Positions 4,279 through 30,550 of a stretch of 64,000 nucleotides of DNA are shown one piece after another; positions within the stretch are counted from its first letter, which is position 1, and each line of letters begins with the position of its first letter. The stretch lies in contig JBDKFZ010000017.1 in NCBI GenBank assembly GCA_039798445.1, positions 4,195 to 68,194 of the forward strand. The letters run 5' to 3'. Made by a program: the position numbers and the translations under genes. The notes under the pieces are model-generated. The model did no database searches, had not been told where the DNA came from, and worked only from the letters and a program-made list of their open reading frames with translations. This stretch comes from Candidatus Parcubacteria bacterium (GTDB taxonomy: Bacteria > Patescibacteriota > Minisyncoccia > Phycocordibacterales > EsbW-18).

Positions 4279-5547
4279 ATGCTTGATATAAATTTCATTC
4301 GAGACAATAAAGACATCGTTATCGCCGGAGCCAAAAAGAAGCACGTTGATGTCGATATTGAGGCCCTCATCAAAGTTGATGACGAACGTCGAGAGATTCT
4401 CAGGGTTGTCGAAGATCTTCGCGCAAAACAGAACGTTGCTACGGAAGCAATTGCCAAGAACGGTCCCGACCGCGACGCACTCATTGCAGAGATGCGCACC
4501 GTCAAAGAAGAACTTGCGGGTAAAGAAGAAAAGCTCAAAGAGCTCATGGTTGTGTGGCGCGAGCTCATGCTCCAAGTCCCGAACGTTCCTGATATCTCTG
4601 TCCCAGATGGTGTGAGCGATGCGGACAACAAAGAAGTAAAAGTGTGGGGTGAGAAGCCGACATTTGATTTTACACCGAAGGATCATATCGAACTCATGAC
4701 GGCTCTCGATATGGTTGACCTCGAGCGTGGTTCAAAAGTTGCAGGATTCCGAGGGTACTTTCTTAAGGGTGCAGGTGCGGAACTTCAGTCTGCGCTTTGG
4801 CGATTCGTTGAGGACTTCTTCCGTGCTAAGGGTGGTTTTGTACCAATGATTGTTCCTTCGCTTGTTCGTCCAGAAGTTTTCTTGGGCACAGGATATTTGC
4901 CACAAGGTGAAGAGGATTTGTATAAAACACAGGATGGAGAATATCTCGCGGGAACCGCTGAGGTGGCGACGATGGGTTATTACATGAACGATGTGCTTGA
5001 GAAGAAAGATTTACCTATGAAGTTTCTTTCTTTCTCGGATGCATTTCGTCGTGAAGCGGGAAGCCATGGAAAAGACACGCGTGGAATTCTTCGTGTGCAT
5101 GAGTTCTATAAGTACGAACAAGTGGTGCTCTGTGAAGCGTCGCACACTGAGTCGGTCAAATACCACGAAGAGATTCAACGAAATACCGAAGAACTTACTG
5201 AAGCACTCGGTCTTCACTATCACGTTGTAGCGAACTGCGGTGGTGATATCGGCCTCGGACAGGTGAAGAAGTACGACATCGAGGTCTGGTTGCCGTCTGA
5301 GAACACGTACCGAGAAACTGGGTCAGCCTCGTACTTCCATGATTTCCAGACGCGTCGTTTGAATATTCGCTATAAAGACGACGATGGAAAAATGAAATTT
5401 GTACACTCTTTGAACAACACCGCCCTTTCTGGACGACCGCTCATCATGATTGTTGAGAACTACCAGAATGCTGATGGTTCGATTACGATTCCCGAGGCGC
5501 TTCGCCCATATATGGGGGGACGCGAGAAGATCACTCTCAATAAATAG
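4279..5547 (+). CDS. serS: seryl-tRNA synthetase
   Basis: 422 aa; N-terminal coiled-coil arm MLDINFIRDNKDIV..., class II core motifs. Divergent from dprA, with TACTATATAAT -10-like box in the 50-bp spacer. Confidence 0.95.
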   Translation: MLDINFIRDNKDIVIAGAKKKHVDVDIEALIKVDDERREILRVVEDLRAKQNVATEAIAKNGPDRDALIAEMRTVKEELAGKEEKLKELMVVWRELMLQVPNVPDISVPDGVSDADNKEVKVWGEKPTFDFTPKDHIELMTALDMVDLERGSKVAGFRGYFLKGAGAELQSALWRFVEDFFRAKGGFVPMIVPSLVRPEVFLGTGYLPQGEEDLYKTQDGEYLAGTAEVATMGYYMNDVLEKKDLPMKFLSFSDAFRREAGSHGKDTRGILRVHEFYKYEQVVLCEASHTESVKYHEEIQRNTEELTEALGLHYHVVANCGGDIGLGQVKKYDIEVWLPSENTYRETGSASYFHDFQTRRLNIRYKDDDGKMKFVHSLNNTALSGRPLIMIVENYQNADGSITIPEALRPYMGGREKITLNK

Positions 5548-5568
5548 TTTCTGCTGTAAGCTGTAGGC

Positions 5569-6441
5569 ATGCTCCGACGCTTCACATCCGAACGCATCCG
5601 TAAGGCGCACCACAAACGCATTGCTTTGACGGTGAGCATTTGGGCCGGCCTCATCATCTCGTCGATACTCCTCATTCTCGTTCTTTTTTCGAGCAAGCAG
5701 ATAGCAATCACGTCGATATCGTTCGAAGGCAACAAAGCGATTACCGATGAAGAATTGTTTGCTGTAGCTGCGCCGCATCTCGAAGGCTCGTATCTTCATC
5801 TCTTCTCGCGACGCAATATTTTCATTTTTCCAAAGAACGATATCGAAGCGGACATCCACGCTTCATTTGTGAGAGCAGAAGAAGTCGCCATCGATCGTGA
5901 TGGATTCTCAAAACTACTTATAGCTGTAGTGGAACGTGATCCTTCAGGATTGTGGTGTGGATTGACCACAACATCGCTCGCTCCCTGTTATTTTGTCGAT
6001 GAGACAGCACTTGCGTTTGCACCTGCACCGCGCATGAGCGGTAGCTCTTTCATTGCATACGAACGAGCACTTCCACTCAAGCCGATTGGTAGACAGCTTG
6101 TGCCTCAAGAAGAATTTGATGCGCTCAACGATTTCATTGGCTTCATCGCGACGCTCGGATTTAATACGCGCCGTGTCGTATGGAAAGAAGATGCACTCGA
6201 GCTCATGACGACATTTGCTACAAAGACCGGTGAGGAGGATGTGCGACTTCGTGTGCCGCTCGCGGGTCCATATGAACAAGCTTTCACCAATCTCGCCTCA
6301 ATCGTTCAGTCACAAAAAAATAAAAGTGTAGGGGCAGACGAGGAGCCATTTATCTTTGCTGGCCTGGAATACATCGACCTTCGTTTCGAAAACAGAATTT
6401 TTTATAAACAAGAAGCCGGAGCTTCTTCAGTCGTCGAATAG
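5569..6441 (+). CDS. FtsQ/DivIB-like cell division protein (POTRA domain)
   Basis: Short cytoplasmic N-terminus, one TM (LIISSILLILVLF), POTRA-like ISFEGNKAITDEELFAVAAPHLEGSYLHLFSRRNIFIFPKNDIEADI...LLIAVVERDPSGLW. Confidence 0.6.
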   Translation: MLRRFTSERIRKAHHKRIALTVSIWAGLIISSILLILVLFSSKQIAITSISFEGNKAITDEELFAVAAPHLEGSYLHLFSRRNIFIFPKNDIEADIHASFVRAEEVAIDRDGFSKLLIAVVERDPSGLWCGLTTTSLAPCYFVDETALAFAPAPRMSGSSFIAYERALPLKPIGRQLVPQEEFDALNDFIGFIATLGFNTRRVVWKEDALELMTTFATKTGEEDVRLRVPLAGPYEQAFTNLASIVQSQKNKSVGADEEPFIFAGLEYIDLRFENRIFYKQEAGASSVVE

Positions 6442-6482
6442 ATAAAATAGTGACGGCCGCCTCCCTGTGGGGGAGAGCGGCC
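6441..6482 (-). terminator. rho-independent terminator for the minus-strand small-ORF cassette
   Basis: GGCCGCCTCCC-tgtg-GGGAG(A)GCGGCC hairpin followed on the minus strand by GTCACTATTTTATC. Confidence 0.5.
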
Positions 6483-6512
6483 GTGGTGACGGGTTAGACC
6501 CGTCGGGGTCGT

Positions 6513-6656
6513 TCAGGTGAAATCGTTGGTGCGGTTCTGTCCGCGCTGGCGGGGCTTCCCGCGCGGAGCGGTGTTGGGCTTGACCGTCACGCCCTGCCGT
6601 CGCAGGCGACGCCGTTGCTCCTGGAGCTCCTTGCGGGTGAGTCTGTTGGTACCCAA
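6513..6656 (-). CDS. small basic ORF P3 (47 aa, TTG start) in the high-GC cassette
   Basis: GGAG Shine-Dalgarno 7 nt upstream of TTG; LGTNRLTRKELQEQRRRLRRQGVTVKPNTAPRGKPRQRGQNRTNDFT; ends at the TGA immediately before the terminator. It is the C-terminal part of the longer 187-aa track ORF 6513..7076, which is the alternative reading. Confidence 0.3.
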   Translation of the reverse strand: MGTNRLTRKELQEQRRRLRRQGVTVKPNTAPRGKPRQRGQNRTNDFT

Positions 6657-6678
6657 AGTTAGTTCTCCTCTGAGAAAC

Positions 6679-6828
6679 CTAGTTGGCCTGCTCAGCTTCA
6701 GCGTCGGACTCTTCCTGTTCGTCGGGGATCTCCCGGACGATTTGCTGGTTCGCCTTGCGGCGCTCGGCGCGAGCTTCCCGTCGGGACTGTTCGCGCGCGC
6801 GTTCCTTGACCCACCGTGGCGCTCCCAT
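6679..6828 (-). CDS. small ORF P2 (49 aa) in the high-GC cassette
   Basis: ATG preceded by AAGGGG; MGAPRWVKERAREQSRREARAERRKANQQIVREIPDEQEESDAEAEQAN (basic N-terminus, acidic tail). Same frame as P1, separated by TAA plus 4 codons. Confidence 0.3.
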   Translation of the reverse strand: MGAPRWVKERAREQSRREARAERRKANQQIVREIPDEQEESDAEAEQAN

Positions 6829-6840
6829 GAGTGCCCCTTG

Positions 6841-7050
6841 TTAGGCCGAGTTGCGGGCAAGCCGCAGGAACCGATCGTTGAGCGCCCGCAGGAAGCTCTG
6901 CTTGATGCGGATCTTCCACATACGACGGTCGCGACGCTTGTCGCGACTGACCTGCACCCTCTGGGCGACGGCGTGGCGTCTGGAAGCTGCCGGCCGGCGG
7001 CGCTTCCCGGTACGGACCGAATTCTGCCGTCGCTGCGGGTTCTTGGGCAT
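6841..7050 (-). CDS. small arginine-rich ORF P1 (69 aa) in the high-GC cassette
   Basis: Textbook AGGAGG Shine-Dalgarno 8 nt upstream of the ATG; MPKNPQRRQNSVRTGKRRRPAASRRHAVAQRVQVSRDKRRDRRMWKIRIKQSFLRALNDRFLRLARNSA; about 70% GC. Confidence 0.45.
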   Translation of the reverse strand: MPKNPQRRQNSVRTGKRRRPAASRRHAVAQRVQVSRDKRRDRRMWKIRIKQSFLRALNDRFLRLARNSA

Positions 7051-7119
7051 GAAGCTTTCCTCCTGATGACGAGCATCGTCCGCTTGATTGCGGATCAATG
7101 TCGTGTGCATCTGGACGAG

Positions 7120-7148
7120 AATCTACCATTTGAATCAGATACTGGCAA
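7120..7148 (-). promoter_or_regulatory. putative sigma70-type promoter driving the minus-strand cassette
   Basis: On the minus strand: TTGCCA-N17-TAGATT with TG extension, about 60 nt upstream of P1; sits in low-GC DNA overlapping the dus start region. Confidence 0.3.
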
Positions 7149-7153
7149 GTGCT

Positions 7154-8149
7154 ATGGTGTCGTCTGTGGAAAACACCTTCTGGAACAAATTACCCAAGCC
7201 ATTCTTTTGTCTCGCGCCGCTTGCCGACGTGACCGATCCTGCATTCCGCAGAGTCATCGCAAAGTATGGCAAGCCCGACGTTTTGTGGACAGAATTCGTC
7301 TCTGCAGACGGTTTGTTCAAGGGTGGCTACGATGCATTGATCAAAGGATTGCAATACACCGAAGAAGAGCGCCCCATCATCGCGCAGTTCTTTAGTCGTG
7401 AGCCTGAGTTGATGGCAAAGGCCACTGAGCTTGCTACCGAAATGGGATTTGATGGCGTTGATGTAAACATGGGATGTCCTGACGAGAATGTCTGCAAGCA
7501 AGGTGCAGGTGCGGCGATTATGAAAGATCCCGAGCGTGCGCAAGCAATCATCCTTGCGATGAAGGAGGCGAGTGCAAAGAGTTCACGACCGATTCCTGTG
7601 GCGGTGAAGACGCGCATCGGCTACAACGAGAACGAAGTGGAGACGTGGATTCCGCAGATTCTTTCCGCGAAGCCTGATGTGCTTACGATTCACGCACGCA
7701 CCAAAAAAGAGATGTCAAAAGTCGCTGCACATTGGGATGTGGTCAAACGGGTCGTCGAGATTCGCGATGAGATTCAAAAAGACGATGCAGTGAAGACGCT
7801 CATCATCGGCAATGGGGATGTGGTTGATATTGCTGATGCACGAACAAAAGCAGAAGAGACCGGATGCGACGGAGTAATGCTCGGCCGTGCGATCTTCGGT
7901 AACCCATGGCAATTTGCAAGCGAACACGGCGATCGCCCCGATCTCAAAGGTCGTCTCGCAGTTCTTGCTGAACACATTAAACTTTTTGATGAACTGCTCA
8001 CAGGCAAACGCTCATTTGCAACCATGAAGAAACACTTCAAGTCATATATTCAAGGACCTGATGGTGATAAACAGCTCGTTATCAAGCTCATGGAAGAGGC
8101 GCGAACGCCGAAGGAGGCGTTGGAGATTATAGAGGGCTACCAAATCTAA
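7154..8149 (+). CDS. dus: tRNA-dihydrouridine synthase (DusB-like, TIM-barrel flavoenzyme)
   Basis: PFFCLAPLADVTDPAFRRVIAKYG...VDVNMGCPDENVCKQGAGAAIMKDPE...IPVAVKTRIG. Start set at the internal ATG (MVSSVENTFWNKLPK); the longer ORF beginning at 7088 is possible. Confidence 0.85.
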   Translation: MVSSVENTFWNKLPKPFFCLAPLADVTDPAFRRVIAKYGKPDVLWTEFVSADGLFKGGYDALIKGLQYTEEERPIIAQFFSREPELMAKATELATEMGFDGVDVNMGCPDENVCKQGAGAAIMKDPERAQAIILAMKEASAKSSRPIPVAVKTRIGYNENEVETWIPQILSAKPDVLTIHARTKKEMSKVAAHWDVVKRVVEIRDEIQKDDAVKTLIIGNGDVVDIADARTKAEETGCDGVMLGRAIFGNPWQFASEHGDRPDLKGRLAVLAEHIKLFDELLTGKRSFATMKKHFKSYIQGPDGDKQLVIKLMEEARTPKEALEIIEGYQI

Positions 8150-8160
8150 ATTGGGAAATA

Positions 8161-8188
8161 TTGACAATTGTGATAAACAACTTATAAT
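8161..8188 (+). promoter_or_regulatory. consensus sigma70 promoter (TTGACA-N16-TATAAT)
   Basis: Perfect -35 TTGACA and -10 TATAAT with 16-nt spacer, followed by AAGGAGG Shine-Dalgarno (8200-8206) and ATG at 8212. Confidence 0.6.
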
Positions 8189-8211
8189 ACCTTTCAGACA
8201 AGGAGGAACTG

Positions 8212-8478
8212 ATGTCGAGAGAAGATAGTGTTATCGCGCTTTACGCTTCGATTCGTGATGAGCTTCATTTGACCCCTGAGGAGGACTATCACTTCTCAAC
8301 GATGGTCAACTCAGCTCTCTATCCGTCGAGGGACGTCGCTGTAGACTTCGTTCGTGGGGGATTGGCAGCGATGTCGCGTCTCCCCAACCTCCAGAAGGCC
8401 GTGAGCTGGTTTCAGCGCGAAGTGGATTCTCTCCCAGATCAACCTGTAGGGGAAGATGTGCCTGAAATCGCTCTCTAA
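8212..8478 (+). CDS. hypothetical small acidic protein (88 aa)
   Basis: Strong promoter and Shine-Dalgarno upstream, own terminator downstream; no recognisable domain. Confidence 0.6.
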   Translation: MSREDSVIALYASIRDELHLTPEEDYHFSTMVNSALYPSRDVAVDFVRGGLAAMSRLPNLQKAVSWFQREVDSLPDQPVGEDVPEIAL

Positions 8479-9589: not shown

Positions 9590-9660
9590 TTGCCGGACTT
9601 GGATTCGAACCAAGATACCCGCCTCCAAAGGGCGGTGTCCTACCATTAGACGATCCGGCA
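9590..9660 (-). tRNA. tRNA-Gln (anticodon UUG)
   Basis: Cloverleaf TGCCGGA-TC-GTCT-AATGGTA-GGAC-A-CCGCC-CTTTGGA-GGCGG-GTAT-CTTGG-TTCGAAT-CCAAG-TCCGGCA-A; U1:A72 is typical of bacterial tRNA-Gln; no CCA encoded. Confidence 0.75.
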
Positions 9661-11648: not shown

Positions 11649-12362
11649 ATGAAGAACAATCTGTTGTTCGTCGCAGTCCTCGCGCTGTTCGCCCTCATCG
11701 CCGCACCCGCCGCACCCGCGGCAGCCGTCAGCATCTTCGCCGACGGCTTCGAAGGAGGTACGACGTGTGCCTGGTCATCCGGTGGTACGTGCATCATTCC
11801 GACGTTCATCGGCGACGATGCGTCGGTGGTCAATGGTTCTACCGCCGAGTACGAAGTCAGCTGGAGTCTGGAGAACGTCCATAACGGACCTGTCTTCCAG
11901 TCAAAGGTCATGTGTCGCGACCTCAACACGGTGAATTGCGGGATGTCGTTCACCATCCGCAAGGCCGATGGCACCATCTACACCGGTGGCGTTATGGCCG
12001 TCCAGTTGTCGTCGTCGAATTCGGCACTCGACAGTCCCACCCACTGGGGTATGGCGGGCAACGGAGCGGACCGCCCGTTCTCGGCGTTCATCGCCCTGAA
12101 CAACACAAATGGTACGGTTGGTTCGTACCGTGCGCGTGTCGAAGGCGTCTCATACGCCTTCGACAGCAACGATATGGTGGGCGATCGATTGCTCACCATG
12201 GGATACCAGACGGATCTGGTCAACCTCCTCAACGTTCAACCGTTGGGAGACCAGACCGAAGCGCTCCTCGATGCGCTTCCATATCCGCTCTGGAAGCCGG
12301 ATGTCGAGACCTTCATCGAGACGGCGGCCGGCAGCGGCGTGTTCAACAGAATCACTCAGTAA
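11649..12362 (+). CDS. secreted hypothetical protein (237 aa), higher GC (about 62%)
   Basis: N-terminal signal peptide MKNNLLFVAVLALFALIAAPAAPAAA; Gly/Thr/Cys-containing mature part; no family recognised. Confidence 0.6.
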   Translation: MKNNLLFVAVLALFALIAAPAAPAAAVSIFADGFEGGTTCAWSSGGTCIIPTFIGDDASVVNGSTAEYEVSWSLENVHNGPVFQSKVMCRDLNTVNCGMSFTIRKADGTIYTGGVMAVQLSSSNSALDSPTHWGMAGNGADRPFSAFIALNNTNGTVGSYRARVEGVSYAFDSNDMVGDRLLTMGYQTDLVNLLNVQPLGDQTEALLDALPYPLWKPDVETFIETAAGSGVFNRITQ

Positions 12363-29862: not shown

Positions 29863-29873
29863 ATCGCAGAGTG

Positions 29874-29902
29874 TTGACGATTTGCGTAATGTGGCCTATA
29901 GT
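29874..29902 (+). promoter_or_regulatory. near-consensus sigma70 promoter (TTGACG-N17-TATAGT)
   Basis: Directly after the uvrB stop; drives the 157-aa orphan gene. Confidence 0.5.
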
Positions 29903-29955
29903 CTTTTTGGAGTACGCCCAGCACTAGGCTGGCCGACAACGCATCAAAGGGGGAC

Positions 29956-30429
29956 ATGGTGGTAAAGATTCCCGGGTTTCCAAAGGTCGTGGTTTTCGAG
30001 AACTATCCTCGGCTTGATGCCAGGGGAGGCTTCCAGCTTCAGGCTCGACTTCCGCCGGAATTTCCTCACAGACCGCAGAGGCTGGTCATCGTTCCCGACA
30101 GTCATGGTCCCATTCCAGTGCAGACCGGTGTTCCGTATGAGATCGAGTTCTGCATGTTCCTCGGGAAGACCCGTCGGTGGTCGATCATGGCCCTGGTCAA
30201 AGCGTTGCGGGTGAGCGACGTTCATCCCGAGCCGGTGGTGTTCACCCCTGAAATTCAAGCGCCGAAACGGCGCGTGAAGCCGCCGCTTCGGGCACTGCCA
30301 CGGCCTCCGTTGCCCTCCGTGACGACGGAAGATCTGGTGCGGAGGAATATTCCGTTCATTCCTCTCGACCGGAGCGAGCCGCAGAGACGGCATTTCAAGC
30401 CCTCGGCACGGCCGAGGATGCGCGCGTAG
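29956..30429 (+). CDS. hypothetical Pro/Arg-rich protein (157 aa), higher GC (about 59%)
   Basis: Own promoter and terminator; inserted between uvrB and uvrA; no family recognised. Confidence 0.5.
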   Translation: MVVKIPGFPKVVVFENYPRLDARGGFQLQARLPPEFPHRPQRLVIVPDSHGPIPVQTGVPYEIEFCMFLGKTRRWSIMALVKALRVSDVHPEPVVFTPEIQAPKRRVKPPLRALPRPPLPSVTTEDLVRRNIPFIPLDRSEPQRRHFKPSARPRMRA

Positions 30430-30448
30430 CAAGCCATCGCTTCGCGCA

Positions 30449-30489
30449 AACGGCGGGTCCAACTTCGGACCCGCCGTTCTTCTTTTTAT
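30449..30489 (+). terminator. rho-independent terminator
   Basis: AACGGCGGGTCC-aacttc-GGACCCGCCGTT then CTTCTTTTT. Confidence 0.65.
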
Positions 30490-30550
30490 GGTATATTCAT
30501 TTCACGCATGAGACCCCCCACGAGCAACCAGGGGGCGTTTGGCGTTCTCT

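Follow-up and report, generated by a model that had tools for sequence, protein, structure and literature searches.

Arginine-rich-motif RNA-binding peptides include lambda and P22 N as well as HIV Tat and Rev, and the chlamydial Hc1 and Hc2 are bacterial histone-like or protamine-like condensers. The DUF1127 proteins (YjiS, Agrobacterium), of about 50 amino acids (aa), are Arg-rich and helical, and act as regulators via their binding partners (PMC11707872, PMC12501420). Species-specific orphan genes, for their part, are rare within species and match their host in guanine-plus-cytosine (GC) content (PMC11293555); some orphans are of native origin (PMC11293555, PMC12542359), and most ORFans of E. 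coli were imported (PMC13012023). In this study, we examined a cassette of three small open reading frames (ORFs), P1, P2 and P3, which lies between ftsQ and dus in a 64-kb stretch of DNA from the metagenome-assembled genome of an uncultured Candidatus Parcubacteria bacterium (contig JBDKFZ010000017.1; hereafter the window, in whose positions all coordinates are given, with the cassette region at 6450-7085). The comparisons make it very probable that the cassette is a real, native and translated orphan operon of three microproteins; the self-contained mini-operon of uncharacterised small proteins proposed in a first-pass annotation of this DNA is thus supported. The three protein families are new and without homologues; lineage-restricted microprotein operons as such are a known kind of object. 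A literature search found no description of such a cassette.

Coding evidence, occurrence and expression signals

P1 (69 aa, minus strand, 7050..6841), recognised from its ORF and from selection, opens with an ATG behind an AGGAGG Shine-Dalgarno sequence. P2 (49 aa, minus strand, 6828..6679), also with an ATG, follows in the same frame 12 nt past the TAA of P1, and P3, of which the window carries the type A allele (P3A; 47 aa, minus strand, 6656..6513), has a TTG start with GGAG upstream. P1 occurs as five allele types of 58-88% identity, with 3-nt and 12-nt in-frame deletions, and P2 alleles are 51-92% identical, again with in-frame indels. Ratios of nonsynonymous to synonymous divergence (dN/dS, Nei-Gojobori) are 0.25-0.57 in P1 and 0.06-0.75 in P2; the flanking genes have 0.02-0.08. 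When dN and dS were tested against each other (Fisher) in five P1/P2 comparisons, dN was significantly below dS in four (P1, p = 0.004 and 0.01; P2, p = 0.001 for the window versus the related locus L009, and p = 0.03). Variable columns, counted at the first, second and third codon positions (20/19/34 in P1, 22/13/28 in P2), are most numerous at the third. P1 and P2 are, on these comparisons, evidently coding and under purifying selection, weaker than that on the flanking genes. All ORFs are intact in the roughly 20 contigs that carry the cassette, and the start codons of P1-P3 are kept in all alleles; a purine stretch resembling a Shine-Dalgarno sequence is clear for P1 and P3, and weak before P2 in some alleles. 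The P3 sequence is identical in the window, L001, L006-8 and L099, and being invariant the window-type P3 has no dN/dS of its own. It had been suggested that P1 and P2 could be a split 123-aa gene or a readthrough pair. The two share a frame in the window, L006-8 and L009, but are offset by +1 in L003-5 and L010-16, and each has its own start codon; since their frame relation is not conserved, they are neither. The deposited annotation places a 187-aa hypothetical protein here (MEN9405554.1, RLY47_513, minus strand, 6513-7076), which is the frame of P3 read across P1 and P2. Open in the window, this frame holds a stop codon in L006-8, and we consider it a mis-call that hides three apparently real small genes. 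A long antisense ORF was likewise rejected, being fragmented in L010, with antisense ORFs broken in other alleles.

Among 5.8 billion protein clusters P1 has four relatives, all 83-100% identical and all encoded between dus and ftsQ. Together with loci reached through P2, P3, Dus and a scan of metagenome contigs for the promoter pattern (which added one locus only, L099), the cassette is found in its ftsQ/dus context in about 20 contigs; they belong to mutually independent JGI, ENA, Logan and NCBI assemblies, and this recurrence excludes the assembly chimera considered in the first-pass annotation. All sampled clade members (Dus identity 90% or more) carry the cassette, as does a sister species. 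In L003-5, L009 and L010-16 the P3 position holds an apparently unrelated basic ORF, type B (P3B). The sister species L017 (Dus 90% and FtsQ 72% identical) has the same promoter, leader hairpin and terminator around two ORFs only. This two-gene cassette (L017 2562-2906; L096 941-1307) comprises a P3-family ORF (56 or 65 aa) in which strains differ by large in-frame indels, and then another basic ORF, of 48 or 46 aa, whose C-terminus is wholly different in L017 and L096, that of L096 ending in a P3-like KNRTNG. The first ORF of L017 (L017a; MGTNGCTKEELKTQKRAARK...KHRTNGH...) links the A and B types. P3A matches L017a at z = 5.7, a score that none of 2000 composition-preserving shuffles equalled, the L004 form of P3B matches L096a at z = 5.1, and the L010 form matches L017a at z = 3.3. 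In addition, the P3 start TTG GGT ACC AAC aligns with ATG GGC ACC AAT of L017, and a motif NR(x)TN(G/D) is common to P3A, L017a and the L004 and L009 forms of P3B. Linked in this way, P3 is the earliest occupant of the locus that can still be recognised. By contrast, only the window's own species group has P1 and P2; a weak signal (P2 versus L096b, z 2.8) hints that P2 and the second ORF of the L096/L017 cassette are related, with possible paralogy between modules. Within the window, tblastn found no further paralogue of P1-P3, and a scan of the gaps found no other small basic ORF rich in G or C at third codon positions (GC3).

Outside the clade, P1-P3 belong to no family in Pfam (E ≤ 1), NCBIfam (E ≤ 10) or PADLOC (E ≤ 10), and no toxin, antitoxin or defence profile of PADLOC (E ≤ 10) or Pfam recognises them. 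PHROGs gave no family, its sole entry being one phrog at E 1.5. Profile searches of the PDB with the P1, P2 and P3 alignments (E ≤ 10) found no matches, and neither did Foldseek with the P1 model against the PDB, in this case because a single helix is uninformative. A scan of IMG/VR with the P1 profile was empty; a HMMER scan of 1.84 billion representatives, made with the P1 profile only, recovered P1 alleles and one repeat artefact, and the P3-family profile search gave matches in the same clade only. In the databases searched, P1-P3 have no homologues outside a narrow Paceibacteria clade, in agreement with the initial impression that no known ribosomal or other family fits them.

The minus-strand promoter, Shine-Dalgarno sites and terminator reported around the three ORFs could all be read as described, by ORF, pattern and fold. 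A sigma-70-type site, TTGCCA-N17-(TG)TAGATT (minus strand, 7148..7120; pattern match), adjoins the dus start codon. It scores 9/12, such sites averaging 0.4 in shuffles of the region, carries the TG extension of an extended -10 element, and is nearly invariant across all alleles and the sister species L017; we infer that it acts as the cassette promoter. The 5' leader (minus strand, 7051..7119; sequence and fold) contains a conserved hairpin of 5 bp, UCCGC-AAUCAA-GCGGA (minus strand, 7094..7079), which is kept in L017 with a changed loop and in L003-5 via a G-U pair; the conservation of the leader may stem from the dus promoter, which must share 7051..7119. The P1 Shine-Dalgarno sequence (AGGAGG, minus strand, 7064..7059) stands 8 nt before the P1 ATG and is of this type in the alleles, some of which have the weaker AGGAGA or AGAAGG. 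The -10 box is also closely followed by an upstream in-frame ATG (minus strand, 7110-7108), which would make P1 89 aa long by adding 20 residues (MHTTLIRNQADDARHQEESF). This ATG shares its frame with the first ORF in all alleles, including L003-5 with their 6-nt insertion and an allele whose first ORF is P3-like, and is replaced by ACG in L017. P1 may, then, be an 89-aa protein, possibly made from a near-leaderless mRNA with the alternative start at 7110; the strong Shine-Dalgarno sequence favours 7050. At the opposite end, two GC-rich hairpins in the minimum free energy fold (minus strand, 6504..6488 and 6484..6453), followed by CACTATTTTATC, form a putative terminator at 6441..6504 that abuts the ftsQ stop codon (6439-6441, plus strand); a simple terminator scan missed them because the stem carries a bulge. 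The terminator is kept in L003/4, L006-8, L010 and L099, and by architecture in L017-L025.

Composition, tempo and history of the ftsQ-dus site

The GC rise at 6450-7085 had been put at about 70%. It is indeed abrupt, and this is the highest-GC 636-nt stretch in the whole 64 kb; its mean, however, is 65.4%, against 50.7% for the window (standard deviation 3.1% for segments of 636 nt), or +4.8 standard deviations. Single 50-nt segments inside it peak at 72-76%, and the edges are sharp: GC falls to 34-54% towards ftsQ and to 44-50% towards dus. Two things account for the high GC, namely the codons of Arg, Ala, Gly and Pro, and a strong preference for codons ending in G or C. GC3 is 0.74-0.81 in the cassette (0.81 in P3) against a host mean of 0.53 (standard deviation 0.065); AAG is used in 10/10 cases, CAG in 13/15, AAC in 9/10 and ACC in 6/7; CGG makes up 26% of the cassette Arg codons versus 7% in the host, and CTG and ACC are also over-used. 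The same preference is present in every diverged allele and in unrelated small ORFs at the site in related genera, and GC3 has not decayed in any allele despite dS of up to about 1. As far as the compared alleles go, GC3-richness is a persistent property of whatever the slot encodes. High expression is only partly consistent as its cause: the bL21 and bL27 genes of this window have AAG, AAC, GTC and CGC in common with the cassette, yet their GC3 is 0.50-0.60 and CGG is absent from them. The GC excess might stem from an avoidance of A-runs in mRNAs for polybasic proteins, from mRNA structure, or from GC-biased gene conversion at a hotspot of recombination. A 237-aa ORF (plus strand, 11649-12362), with a hydrophobic, signal-peptide-like N-terminus and no Pfam match, has a GC3 of 0.76, second only to the cassette in the window; the cassette GC3 is thus extreme but not unique.

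The ftsQ-to-dus order is widespread in Paceibacteria. Among 33 syntenic species representatives, 15 have a gap of at least 250 nt and 16 an empty junction (<100 nt); the empty site for which a synteny check had been proposed does exist, although its carriers are all relatives whose Dus is at most 60% identical. In the five nearest relatives (Dus 63-98%) and in two of the six next-nearest (L023 and L025), the site holds a promoter, a small basic ORF led by a Shine-Dalgarno sequence, and a terminator, in the same orientation. The sites of L018-L026 (e.g. L020 2635-3000 and L025 2567-3000) encode other small ORFs, likewise oriented and equipped with promoter, Shine-Dalgarno sequence and terminator, and mostly very basic and GC3-rich. 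GC3 of the small ORFs at the site is 0.62-0.86 in L017-L020 and L025 and 0.56 in L023, with hosts at 0.40-0.56, the clearest case being L020 (0.86 vs 0.40). Homology of the small ORFs of L018, L019, L020, L023 and L025 to P1-P3 was considered and rejected, as their similarity is not above that of composition-preserving shuffles and Pfam is silent; for these other genera we thus claim only a common architecture and composition. The basic "ORFs" in the gaps of L029, L041, L056 and L069 were also set aside, since they have no Shine-Dalgarno sequence and look random. Other contents occur as well: L026 (2151-3000) has at the site a 119-aa CxxC...CxxC protein and a 66-aa ORF instead, and L080 a hydrophobic 41-aa ORF.

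The cassette evolves fast. Compared with the L010/L016 lineage, the window shows 98.5% identity in Dus and 92.8% in FtsQ, but 58% in P1 and 72% in P2, and P3 is of the other type; the corresponding dN is 0.24 in P1 and 0.135 in P2, while dus has 0.011 and ftsQ 0.038. By these estimates, the cassette proteins outpace Dus and FtsQ roughly 6- to 20-fold. At synonymous sites the picture is different: cassette dS of 0.14-1.7 (mostly 0.14-1.1) is within the range of the flanks in the P1/P2-bearing strains (dus, 0.06-0.75; ftsQ, 0.04-1.4), and the cassette has thus diverged along with the genome. L099 (Ga0172380_10008515, 1575-2310) is a mosaic: it has an L010-type P1 and P1-P2 spacer, and its P2 and P3 are identical to those of the window, with the breakpoint in the conserved 5' part of P2. 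Similarly, the C-terminus of the window P1 equals that of L009 and differs at 9 of 20 residues from that of L006, which is otherwise nearly identical. Judging from these alleles, whole modules have evidently been swapped between strains by homologous recombination. Moreover, the flank dS values between the window and L010 are discordant (dus 0.20 vs ftsQ 1.13), which puts the cassette at a boundary of differently related genome segments and suggests a recombination hotspot.

The cassette is divergent from dus and convergent with ftsQ; its neighbours are serS, ftsQ and dus, and the closest tRNA is at 9590. Of the flanking names assigned at first, dus (plus strand, 7154-8149, ATG at 7154) is secure (PF01207, E 9e-57), whereas ftsQ (plus strand, 5569-6441) has a weak likeness only, with a POTRA_1 match (Pfam) at E 0.001, below the cut-off; its product is MEN9405553.1, and a member of the same 90%-identity cluster carries the NCBI name FtsQ. 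Directly 3' of dus, an 88-aa acidic ORF (plus strand, 8212-8478) with a GGAGG Shine-Dalgarno sequence and no Pfam match is gene-called in all related contigs. A second GC-rich gap, of 676 nt and about 60% GC, lies between uvrB and uvrA (29863-30538). It contains only shadow-like ORFs (157 aa on the plus strand, 172 aa on the minus strand) with no Pfam match, and its Rfam matches are sub-threshold only (best 24.9 bits vs a gathering score of 45).

Proposed role and rival explanations

All three proteins had been described as Arg/Lys-rich, which is true of P1 and P3 (isoelectric point, pI, 12 in both) and only loosely of P2 (pI 5.4). P1 has a net charge of about +21, with 19 Arg and 5 Lys in 69 residues. 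In its AlphaFold2 (AF2) model (predicted local distance difference test, pLDDT, 79), the Arg-rich residues 1-20 are of low confidence and a single helix spans residues 21-68, with values above 90 from about residue 31; a disordered Arg-rich tail followed by one long helix is thus predicted. By eye, the C-terminal part is amphipathic (W45, I49, F53/L54, L57, F61, L64) with roughly heptad spacing, and would suit dimerisation or partner binding. P2 is net acidic, with a basic N-terminal half and an acidic tail (PDEQEESDAEAEQAN); its AF2 model (pLDDT 73) has a helix at residues 5-33, and then a low-confidence acidic tail. P3, with a charge of +10.5, is rich in Pro, Gly and Asn, and is probably mostly non-globular and disordered.

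Taken as a whole, the explanation that we favour, with about an even chance of being correct, is a resident orphan operon whose proteins would be intracellular and nucleic-acid-binding, with P2 as a partner; the nucleic-acid-binding role specifically is tentative, somewhat short of an even chance. On this view the operon would furnish small polycations in abundance, for the intracellular binding of nucleic acid. P1 and P3 could target rRNA, other RNA or the ribosome in the style of arginine-rich motifs, or else DNA in a protamine- or histone-like manner, and P2, with its basic helix and acidic tail, could be a partner or a charge-neutralising chaperone. Selection would then act mainly on charge and helicity, not on exact sequence; a function with such needs would permit fast evolution at a dN/dS of 0.3-0.6 with ORFs intact everywhere. 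Several points weigh against this explanation. The proposed role is drawn solely from charge, disorder and helix prediction, and small basic proteins are not always nucleic-acid binders. Expression of the cassette is a prediction from its sequence. The dN/dS of 0.3-0.6 amounts to weak constraint, and the Fisher test is not significant for P2 between L004 and L010 nor for the P3B pair, the coding status of the window-type P3 depending on its homology to L017a and on GC3. The junction is empty in about half of the syntenic relatives, and the locus must therefore have been gained or lost at some point. Finally, CGG, ACC and CTG are over-used relative to bL21 and bL27, so that high expression does not explain the GC3.

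The composition could be that of a donor. According to this alternative, the cassette is a mini-island acquired horizontally from a high-GC organism or virus, with donor composition kept, the import being ancient or from an unsampled source. The GC of 65% versus 51%, the GC3 of 0.74-0.81 versus 0.53, the atypical use of CGG, CTG and ACC, and the 16 of 33 syntenic relatives in which ftsQ abuts dus are all in its favour, as is the imported origin of most E. coli ORFans (PMC13012023). We nevertheless judge it unlikely. No donor or viral homologue emerged from the 5.8-billion-cluster search, the 1.84-billion HMMER scan, IMG/VR or PHROGs; the cassette boundaries show no terminal inverted repeats or target-site duplications, and no integrase, transposase or tRNA target flanks them. 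No sampled clade member lacks the cassette, and the sister species L017 has it too, with the same promoter and terminator and a P3 homologue; dS between alleles is as large as that of the flanks, with GC3 undecayed, and in other genera this site holds small ORFs that, though not homologous, likewise exceed their hosts in GC3. Of the features by which genomic islands are recognised, then, the locus displays atypical composition, but no donor homologue, no mobility hallmarks and no patchiness with low divergence. The atypical composition from which a foreign origin, perhaps as a horizontally acquired mini-operon, had first been argued is confirmed, the recent import is not; we regard the cassette as resident, vertically inherited DNA and probably not a recent foreign insert. 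The locus cautions against taking local GC excess for a sign of horizontal transfer; here it persists across diverged alleles and genera. Could the genes instead have been born in place, from a transcribed gap enclosed by a bidirectional dus promoter and the terminator, with short ORFs emerging, duplicating and shuffling there, as weakly selected proto-genes with marginal or no specific function? The proteins are orphan, very short, predicted to be disordered or single-helix, and high in dN; ORF content at the site varies between related genera as the promoter/terminator architecture persists; P2 and L096b hint at module paralogy (z 2.8); and native origin of some orphans is documented (PMC11293555, PMC12542359). 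We find this somewhat unlikely, given that dN/dS of P1 and P2 is clearly below 1 with ORFs intact in about 20 contigs, that the AGGAGG-type Shine-Dalgarno sequence of P1 is kept and the promoter has an extended -10, that no non-coding ancestor sequence was identified, and that a GC-rich gap in a 51% GC genome is unlike neutral intergenic DNA.

The extreme positive charge of P1 and P3, the acidic tail of P2, and a fast evolution with allele shuffling typical of conflict loci would also be expected of exported cationic peptides, antimicrobial or cell-penetrating, deployed by a presumed episymbiont against its host or competitors, with P2 as a neutralising or immunity partner and an arms race as the source of diversity. 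This is quite improbable: by eye, the sequences of P1-P3 show neither a signal peptide nor a leader-cleavage motif nor a hydrophobic segment; the neighbourhood lacks genes for transport, processing or immunity; and dN/dS never exceeds 1. It is highly improbable that the locus encodes a structured non-coding or antisense RNA (e.g. a regulator of ftsQ-dus readthrough) in which the ORFs are incidental. The predicted fold of the cassette transcript does surpass those of shuffled sequences (z -4.0, 20 shuffles), any readthrough from ftsQ into dus would be antisense to this transcript, and elevated GC is common in structured RNAs, but Rfam 15 gave 0 matches on either strand of 5500-8200 even at E ≤ 1, substitutions are codon-like, indels are in frame and start codons are kept, and P3 types retain protein motifs despite very different nucleotide sequences. 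As for an artefact or a decayed gene, whether a chimera, a 123-aa P1+P2 or the 187-aa ORF, the in-frame P1 and P2 only 4 codons apart and the open, annotated 187-aa frame point that way in the window; in view of the independent assemblies, the +1 offset in L003-5 and L010-16 and the stop in L006-8, the chance is virtually negligible. We therefore return to the resident orphan operon. A bolder extension of it, in our opinion unlikely, would make the ftsQ-dus junction a dedicated "microprotein nursery", a constitutively expressed slot, delimited by the promoter and terminator, where Arg-rich ORFs are born, duplicated, recombined among strains and diversified, driven by evolutionary conflict with the host bacterium or phages, and where a process acting on the locus (e.g. 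GC-biased gene conversion at a recombination hotspot) holds GC3 near 0.8 against a genome GC of 51%. Genomes of the candidate phyla radiation (CPR) are tiny and rich in unknown genes. Retained throughout the sampled clade and marked by strong expression signals, the cassette is a good candidate for biology particular to its lineage, which could mean accessory factors of the nucleoid or ribosome, or interaction with a host. The locus, with one clear recombinant and at least six allele types, is also a compact natural system for the origin and evolution of orphan microproteins.

Comparison with known systems

In size, charge and strong translation signals, the cassette genes recall the small basic ribosomal proteins (bL34, bL35, bL36, bS21, bS22, bTHX). 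However, no profile of bL34, bL35, bL36, bS21, bS22 or bL28 matches, the PDB, which includes many ribosomes, is silent, evolution is far too fast for a core ribosomal protein (58% identity where Dus has 98.5%), and codon use is unlike that of bL21 and bL27. DUF1127 proteins differ in that P1-P3 have no PF06568 match and belong to a different phylum. There is also a likeness to arginine-rich-motif peptides: residues 8-28 of P2 (KERAREQSRREARAERRKANQ) and P3 (RKELQEQRRRLRRQ) resemble such motifs, and Arg-rich helical or disordered segments of about 10-20 residues are found by composition and in the AF2 helices of P1 (21-68) and P2 (5-33). Such peptides bind a cognate RNA hairpin specifically, and the operon leader has a small conserved hairpin (7094..7079); on the other hand, there is no sequence homology, and the cassette is not phage-borne. 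Histone- and protamine-like condensers share with P1-P3 a very basic, low-complexity, fast-evolving and small make-up that would allow DNA binding by charge, yet Hc1 and Hc2 have no Pfam or PDB similarity to P1-P3, which are much shorter and rich in Arg instead of Lys/Ala. Overall, orphan small-protein genes (PMC11293555, PMC13012023) are like the cassette in being clade-restricted, short, predicted disordered or helical, and under weak purifying selection. In contrast to typical orphans, the cassette occurs in every sampled clade member, comprises three genes and has a full expression apparatus, and against the surveys of such genes (PMC11293555, PMC13012023) it is unusual in its fixed clade-wide site, its GC excess of 14 points over the host and its modular recombination.

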